A DNA stretch of 64,000 nucleotides, from contig JBPCVC010000024.1 in assembly GCA_051010835.1 (NCBI GenBank), forward strand, positions 8,229 through 72,228, read 5' to 3'. A program made the translations under genes and the position numbers. The DNA comes from Mariniblastus sp. Its GTDB lineage: Bacteria; Planctomycetota; Planctomycetia; Pirellulales; Pirellulaceae. Below, piece after piece: positions 1,792 through 2,010 of the stretch; position 1 is the stretch's first letter; the number at the start of each line of letters is the position of its first letter. The notes beneath the pieces are model-generated. The model saw nothing but the letters and a program-made list of their open reading frames with translations, ran no database searches and had not been told where the DNA came from.

Positions 1792-2010
1792 ATGGTAGTC
1801 TCAATCGAGTATTGCGAGTCCTGAAACTATCTTCCTCAAGCTACCAGTTTGGCAGCGGTCATTAAGTCAGCTTTGGGTGCCGAGGTTCAATTGCTTTCAT
1901 CGAGTGGTGGTTGTTTTGAGGTGGTTGCCGATGGTGAACTAGTTTTCTCTAAGAACCGCGTCGGACGATTTCCTACCGATGAAGAAGTTTTAAGTGCACT
2001 TAACGGGTAG
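1792..2010 (+). CDS. SelT/SelW/SelH (Rdx) family selenoprotein, CxxU, 72 aa; in-frame TGA at 1822-1824 read as Sec (alternative in-frame ATG at 1780)
   Basis: Hand translation MVVSIEYCES(U)NYLPQATSLAAVIKSALGAEVQLLSSSGGCFEVVADGELVFSKNRVGRFPTDEEVLSALNG*; Rdx hallmarks IEYC, GG.FEV and FSK...GRFP flank the TGA in one frame; absent from the ORF track. Confidence 0.9.
1840..1856 (+). promoter_or_regulatory. Candidate bacterial SECIS hairpin of the SelW-like gene
   Basis: GCT-A-CCA-GTT-TGG-C-AGC stem-loop; loop G at 1847 is 23 nt after the UGA. Confidence 0.55.

Follow-up and report, generated by a model that had tools for sequence, protein, structure and literature searches.

In bacteria, SelW-like (Rdx) proteins and thioredoxin-fold proteins of the UxxC type are listed selenoprotein families, SECIS elements inside the open reading frame are known, and the use of selenocysteine (Sec) by Planctomycetes is already known, too. 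In the systems of E. coli and Moorella, the last winged helix of SelB binds the G-U of the hairpin loop. The determinants of the E. coli fdhF SECIS are G23 and U24 (PMC8659212). The more general bSECIS model (Zhang and Gladyshev 2005), in the form summarised in PMC13188914, describes an upper stem of 4-16 bp topped by an apical loop of 3-9 nt. One of the first two loop nucleotides is a G, and the next is usually G or U. The loop mostly follows the pattern N1-G-[G|U]-N-N2, in which N1 pairs with N2; the spacing is 16-37 nt and the MFE cut-off -7.5 kcal/mol.

The window analysed here, i.e. the whole stretch of 64,000 nucleotides from Mariniblastus sp., belongs to an assembly of 5.35 Mb in 134 contigs with 48% G+C. 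It contains two unrelated genes with an in-frame TGA, each followed by a short hairpin exposing AGUU. A first-pass annotation of the sequence had proposed these hairpins as candidate lineage-specific SECIS elements. In our reading, to which we assign a probability of roughly 85%, both are standard bacterial SECIS elements, AGUU being one interchangeable variant accepted by a single SelB and not a class of the lineage's own. What is new are these two elements; their kind, the in-ORF bacterial SECIS, and both protein families are already known, and the picture of bacterial Sec insertion is unchanged by them. The features are:

1792-2010, + strand: SelW-like/Rdx-family selenoprotein gene, 72 codons, CxxU, PF10262
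1822-1824, + strand: Sec UGA of the Rdx gene in C-E-S-U, the U of YCxxUNY in all Sec orthologues
1840-1856, + strand: predicted SECIS hairpin 1, arms 1840-1846 and 1850-1856, one A.C mismatch
33659-34303, + strand: exported thioredoxin-like selenoprotein gene, W-U-G-W-C, with a lipoprotein-type signal and Pfam matches
33962-33964, + strand: Sec UGA of the thioredoxin-like gene, first position of UxxC, aligned with the first Cys of WCGWC
33982-33995, + strand: predicted SECIS hairpin 2, CGAGG (33982-33986), AGUU (33987-33990) and CCUCG (33991-33995), 5 bp

Two genes with an in-frame UGA and the Sec machinery

As in other members of the Rdx/SelW-like family, the product of the first gene combines an Rdx fold with a CxxU motif (C-E-S-U) on the N-terminal side, the TGA at 1822-1824 lying in the context Y-C-E-S-U-N-Y. 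Pfam matches PF10262 (Rdx) at 8e-18 over residues 7-73, with U15 within the match. An ATG at 1780, also in frame, is an alternative start; the orthologues start 10 codons ahead of the UGA.

The longest ORF of the thioredoxin-like gene, with TGA read as U, begins at 33599. A start at 33659 is more likely, judging from the lipoprotein-type signal MRILICAAMVFTVAAVLGC (...VLGC) that begins there. The domains Thioredoxin_7 (PF13899, 7e-10), Thioredoxin_2 (PF13098) and Thioredoxin (PF00085) span U122, and Sec replaces the first Cys of CxxC, as is characteristic of thioredoxin-fold UxxC proteins. Unlike the known selenoproteins of this type, it is an exported, lipoprotein-type thioredoxin whose Sec form occurred only in this planctomycete family among the genomes sampled.

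Profile searches of the genome detected SelB (C38:60982-62877) with 369 bits, the only SelB match above the family cut-off. Its C-terminal SelB-wing_3 winged helix, the SECIS-binding domain, reached 65 bits. A tRNA-Sec with the anticodon UCA (67 bits), SelA (588 bits) and SelD (258 bits) are encoded, too. The SelD match (C86:3641-4549, - strand) has no internal stop and lies inside an open frame of 740 aa, from which SelD is probably fused to another domain. TGA terminates 632 long ORFs of the genome and thus is not globally reassigned.

A standard-code gene caller would end at both TGAs, which could then be taken for true stops, pseudogene lesions or codons for another amino acid, with no selenocysteine involved. 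We consider this hardly conceivable. Among 150 genomes sampled from the order Pirellulales, 40 others possess an Rdx copy with the in-frame TGA at this catalytic position. In a collection of species-representative genomes, which was scanned and yielded 80 more Rdx loci from several phyla, 79 had a TGA at the U position together with a hairpin in the matching place. Furthermore, the TGA aligns with the Cys of CxxC in homologues, the Pfam domains cross it, and the complete Sec machinery stands beside a TGA that still functions as a stop elsewhere. With this, two selenoprotein genes that are split in two by a standard-code reading are confirmed.

Geometry and folding of the hairpins

Hairpin 1 (GCUACCA / GUU / UGGCAGC) is paired at 6 of the 7 positions of its stem. 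Its loop GUU (1847-1849) is closed by an A-U pair, or equivalently it can be described as the pentaloop AGUUU (1846-1850). The hairpin begins 15 nt after the UGA and the distance from UGA to loop is 21 nt; AGTT occupies 1846-1849, 22 nt past the A of TGA, and the loop G is at +26 (U of UGA = 1). Hairpin 2 begins 17 nt after its UGA, with 22 nt from UGA to loop, AGTT starting 23 nt past the A of TGA and the loop G at +27. The sequence thereby confirms the AGTT apices that the first-pass annotation had placed 22 and 23 nt after the UGA.

Folding, which had been suggested as a check, is unconvincing by itself. Hairpin 2 gave -6.8 kcal/mol with z -2.3 on 24 nt, -12.7 kcal/mol with z -0.9 on 48 nt and -15.8 kcal/mol on 60 nt; hairpin 1 equalled its shuffles. 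Hairpin 1 has an energy of -3.8 to -5.2 kcal/mol. On 27 nt it reached -5.2 kcal/mol with a z of -0.47, and 54 of 200 shuffles were as good; the values for stretches of 48 and 60 nt were -5.2 kcal/mol (z +0.37) and -11.2 kcal/mol, respectively. The hairpin regions of Rdx Sec orthologues fold with -6 to -17 kcal/mol. Since hairpin 1 is no better than shuffles, folding energy is unable to decide on its nature, and the decision falls to comparison with other genomes.

Measured against the bSECIS model as given in PMC13188914, both hairpins agree in loop size, stem, G followed by U and spacing, and A-G-U-U-U with its A-U pairing is literally N1-G-[G|U]-N-N2. Both are located inside ORFs whose Pfam domains cross the UGA. 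The minimal hairpins (-3.8 to -6.8 kcal/mol) differ from the summarised model in lying above the cut-off of -7.5 kcal/mol, which is reached by longer folds.

With the fdhF SECIS of E. coli the two hairpins share the location in the ORF just 3' of the UGA and an apical loop exposing G-U; C-A-GGUC-U-G in fdhF is paralleled by C-A-GUU-U-G in the Rdx loop. They differ in the position of the loop G (+26 and +27 versus +23), in having AGUU instead of GGUC, and in their shorter and weaker stems. Neither of them has an evident counterpart of U17, the bulged U that E. coli SelB requires. The narrow fdhF type (GGUC, G23/U24, bulged U17) hence describes neither window hairpin, whereas FdhA and the thioredoxin GUPPC of this same genome carry GGUC with G23-U24 at the fdhF positions. 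Rfam searches of the whole window at the gathering threshold, and of both sites at permissive E-values, returned only noise and no SECIS family.

Conservation and covariation

The register of hairpin 1 is the same in 28 distinct sequences of the order, usually GGCCGUCA-GUU-UGGCG(A)GCC. Loop and stem encode the peptide A-V-S-L-A-S. The Ser codon of the loop is AGT in 27 of the 28 sequences and the Leu codon TTG in 24, compared with genome-wide shares of 17% of Ser for AGT and 23.5% of Leu for TTG. For the Pro residue four codons upstream, all four synonymous codons are used in the same sequences. Pairing was found in 86.6% of the cells of this alignment (25-41% for slid-partner controls), and pair 21-33, in which the third bases of two Ala codons face each other, is CG in 18 sequences, UA in 6 and UG in 3.

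The same holds across phyla. In an alignment of 71 distinct Sec Rdx sequences (this gene and 70 further ones) 84.3% of the cells were paired, versus 23-47% for slid controls. The covariation score of 0.265 was reached by none of 500 shuffles, which scored 0.142 +/- 0.012. Pair 21-33 occurs here in six pair types (CG 43, UA 8, GU 7, AU 3, GC 2, UG 2). Within the 71 SelW-like sequences G26 is invariant and U27 conserved to at least 90%. Four of the 79 TGA-bearing Rdx loci have an AGCCU loop instead of G-U.

Cys-type Rdx homologues of the order proved a poor control, belonging to a different subfamily (CTQCRWLLRAAWMAQ). In their place we used the synonymous-codon statistics and the sole Cys Rdx orthologue (L151, Verrucomicrobiales MAG, YCAVCNYEPQVMEL), in which a counterpart of hairpin 1 was not found. 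On this comparative evidence, hairpin 1 is a real SECIS that is under constraint at the RNA level and kept in Sec orthologues.

Of 120 other genomes sampled within the family, 6 have a Sec orthologue of the thioredoxin-like gene. None was detected in 150 genomes across the order, where all matches were Cys forms. Hairpin 2 is kept in all seven Sec genes as (C)UCGAG-[G/A]-AGUU-[C/U]-CUCGA(G), and both Leu codons (CTC) and the Glu codon GAG are identical in all of them. Written in codons, the conserved stretch is CTC-GAG-[G/A]AG-TT[C/T]-CTC-G. In two of the seven the closing pair G-C is replaced by A-U, AAG (Lys) standing in place of GAG (Glu) and TTT in place of TTC (both Phe); among only seven sequences, this compensatory change may be a single event. 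We did not find the hairpin in Cys homologues that have WCGWC and whose peptide, LE(D/G/R)F, is similar. Kept in Sec orthologues and absent from Cys homologues, hairpin 2, too, is by these alignments a real SECIS.

Both hairpins lie in conserved protein segments and hairpin 1 is thermodynamically unremarkable, so one might regard them as by-products of conserved peptides (A-x-S-L-A and L-E-E-F-L) with no role of the RNA, Sec insertion relying on something else. This is very improbable: synonymous positions are frozen only within the hairpin, covariation involves synonymous third positions, Cys homologues with similar peptides have no hairpin, and hairpins with a GU loop are enriched after Sec-UGA codons of unrelated genes (see below). 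The covariation demonstrates that even a short hairpin of low thermodynamic stability can be a genuine SECIS.

The first-pass annotation had named hairpins that are not conserved in Sec-containing orthologues as one observation that would speak against it; both turned out to be conserved. Taken with the covariation, the loss in Cys forms and the full machinery, this argues strongly for the Sec decoding of both UGAs that it had proposed.

The selenoproteome of the genome

The genome was scanned for in-frame TGAs that have coding sequence on both sides and a Cys close by, and candidates were checked against Pfam; a second, separate scan was seeded with the AGTT hairpin. The genome contains about 24 selenoprotein genes, both window genes included. 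Seventeen of these were seen directly (13 with a domain clearly across the TGA, 1 with a sub-threshold domain, 3 with none over the codon) and 7 are counted as paralogues. Apart from the two window genes they are:

Pfam domain across the TGA:
WUPPC TlpA-like proteins, two (one scanned with Pfam, the other counted as paralogue)
DsbD-like protein, WUPTC
AhpC/TSA protein, WUAGC
Peroxiredoxin, GGUT
Deiodinase-like (DIO-like) proteins, two
FdhA
Thioredoxin_7 protein, TUPPC
Thioredoxin, GUPPC
Prx-like protein, GUPPC
ArsC-like protein, GUKTC
AhpD-like protein, CFYU
Weaker grounds:
DsbH-like protein, MWUPG (Thioredoxin_7 over the TGA with 21.3 bits, cut-off 27 bits)
FG-GAP protein, NWUCVG (FG-GAP matches start just past the TGA)
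FG-GAP/UnbV_ASPIC paralogues, seven (UnbV_ASPIC downstream of the TGA, in frame)

This selenoproteome is unusually large for a bacterium and consists mostly of exported thioredoxin-fold, AhpC/TSA, deiodinase-like, ArsC-like and AhpD-like proteins plus FdhA.

Loop types and the question of a lineage-specific SECIS

The loops following these Sec codons are distributed as follows:

AGUU(N), 8 genes: Rdx, thioredoxin WUGWC, Prx-like, ArsC-like, DsbH-like, NWUCVG, two ASPIC copies
GGUC(N), about 9: FdhA, thioredoxin GUPPC, DIO-like b, AhpD-like, four ASPIC copies, second hairpin of one WUPPC gene
AGUCU: DIO-like a
CGUG(U/A), 3 genes: WUPTC, WUAGC, peroxiredoxin
GGCC or GGAC: two genes
No convincing loop: TUPPC

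A clean GU loop is missing from the Thioredoxin_7 protein TUPPC, one ASPIC copy (GGCC) and the WUPPC pair.

A uniform hairpin enumerator built for this analysis was applied to the 24 Sec-UGA codons and to 3000 random in-frame codons. Any hairpin was present after 96% of the Sec-UGA and 39% of the random codons, a bSECIS-type loop after 79% and 9%, and a GU loop after 71% and 5% (about 14-fold), respectively. AGUU loops follow 33% (8/24) of the Sec-UGA codons but 0.3% (8/3000) of the random ones, an about 100-fold difference in which three of the eight cases come from the AGTT-seeded scan (5/21 without them). After true TGA stops, an AGUU-loop hairpin at this spacing was found in 2 of 632 cases (0.3%). 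It is therefore very unlikely that the two window genes share AGUU hairpins by chance.

By a strict count, the element common to the Sec genes is N-G-U-N (17/24). What these genes share is not AGUU itself but a G-U in loop positions 2-3 (or 1-2), lying about 22-30 nt from the UGA's first base. AGUU had been offered as a search motif for the remaining selenoproteins. It does mark 8 of the approximately 24 genes, while the others carry different loops, and a search restricted to AGUU would overlook about two thirds of this genome's selenoprotein genes. Searches for selenoproteins in the Pirellulales lineage should use the G-U apical-loop rule instead of AGUU alone.

The numbers for AGUU could also be taken to indicate a distinct, lineage-specific planctomycete class of SECIS, recognised in a way different from the GGUC of the E. 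coli type. AGUU is as frequent here as GGUC (8 versus about 9 of 24), it has the enrichment after Sec-UGA just given, and planctomycete SelW-like genes have AGUUU more often than any other loop (31/45). Nevertheless, such a class is improbable. Fourteen of 34 SelW-like Sec genes elsewhere (Gammaproteobacteria, Verrucomicrobiota, Kiritimatiellia, Eiseniibacteriota and others) have AGUUU, too, beside AGUCU and GGUCU. In the genome itself GGUC, AGUC and CGUG loops occur with only one SelB match above the cut-off, and GGUC and AGUUC replace each other within one paralogous family (ASPIC/UnbV). In addition, the AGUU loop fits the general bSECIS pattern in its published summary, and its G-U is equivalent to that of fdhF. 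Because AGUUU is found in other phyla and loops are mixed under one SelB, the lineage-specific part of the first-pass proposal is unsupported.

With one SelB match above the cut-off and several loop types, the loops must be interchangeable ligands of this SelB. For the standard SECIS that we favour, the following course would apply. While the ribosome stands at the UGA, SelB in complex with Sec-tRNA-Sec and GTP would bind the apex of the hairpin through the exposed G-U, using its C-terminal winged helix, and its delivery to the A site would result in selenocysteine in place of termination. Loop variants of the form [A/G/C]-G-U-[U/C/G] would be interchangeable for this SelB. The recurrence of AGUU in unrelated genes would reflect what SelB needs, namely G-U on a short stem at about +22 to +30.

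One may further speculate that Pirellulales SelB prefers a broader range of loops, AGUU(N) being as common as GGUC at +22 to +30; we regard this as tentative and rather doubtful. If true, a descriptor tuned to stems of at least 4-5 bp capped by an [A/G/C]GU[U/C/G] loop would bring to light a planctomycete selenoproteome that is unusually large and in part undescribed, and which would take in the Sec ASPIC/UnbV FG-GAP family with its seven paralogues here.

The FG-GAP/UnbV_ASPIC family

The seven ASPIC paralogues are located as follows:

C17, + strand: 43302-45932 and two tandem upstream copies (TGA at 40017 and 42622, 0-based)
C25, - strand: two copies (TGA at 120764 and 123437)
C64, - strand: two copies (TGA at 19686 and 22595)

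Their products of about 870-900 aa carry FG-GAP/VCBS repeats and, at the C-terminus, a UnbV_ASPIC domain; the in-frame TGA lies in D-x-U-S-C-L-W-R. The TGA is kept in 18 of 18 homologues from 7 Pirellulales genomes, in the motif D-L-U-S-x-[FY]-W and mostly with a GCGCAC-GGUC-GUGCGC hairpin. At the same position, GGUC is present in most copies, those of other genomes included, and two of the copies in this genome have AGUUC. A full-text literature search for selenoprotein together with FG-GAP returned no relevant paper. The family is a candidate for an undescribed selenoprotein family.

Further candidates

In three genes, with the contexts ERUNY (C15, DUF6793), GKU (C133, Dabb) and LNUAVFC (C37, DUF3311), the Pfam domain only starts past the TGA, and they were rejected as Sec genes. 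Judged by the appearance of the sequence, the TGA at C24:70781 (window position about 62554) was set aside, too: a complete-looking frame of 424 aa ends there and 39 codons follow.

Two further candidate Sec genes were noted, GGGGUGGGTC at C26:70698-72056 (- strand, context SGGGGUGGGTCEG) with an (A)GUU(U) hairpin, and GCTUG at C47:24009-25340 (- strand, context PLGCTUGNG) with an (A)GUC(U) hairpin. In neither of these two does a Pfam domain extend over the TGA. The Thioredoxin_7 gene with T-U-P-P-C (C73, - strand, TGA at 134730, 0-based) has its domain across the UGA and no convincing downstream hairpin; it may possess a non-canonical SECIS or be a false call.

The WUPPC TlpA-like paralogues on C21 (+ strand, TGA at 17930) and C26 (- strand, TGA at 117977) each have two conserved hairpins 3' of the UGA. 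The first is a long stem spanning +11 to +27 whose loop is AAU or GAU, and it exhibits compensatory changes between the copies. The second, at +35, has a GGUC or GGAC loop. Either of the two may be the SECIS of these genes.
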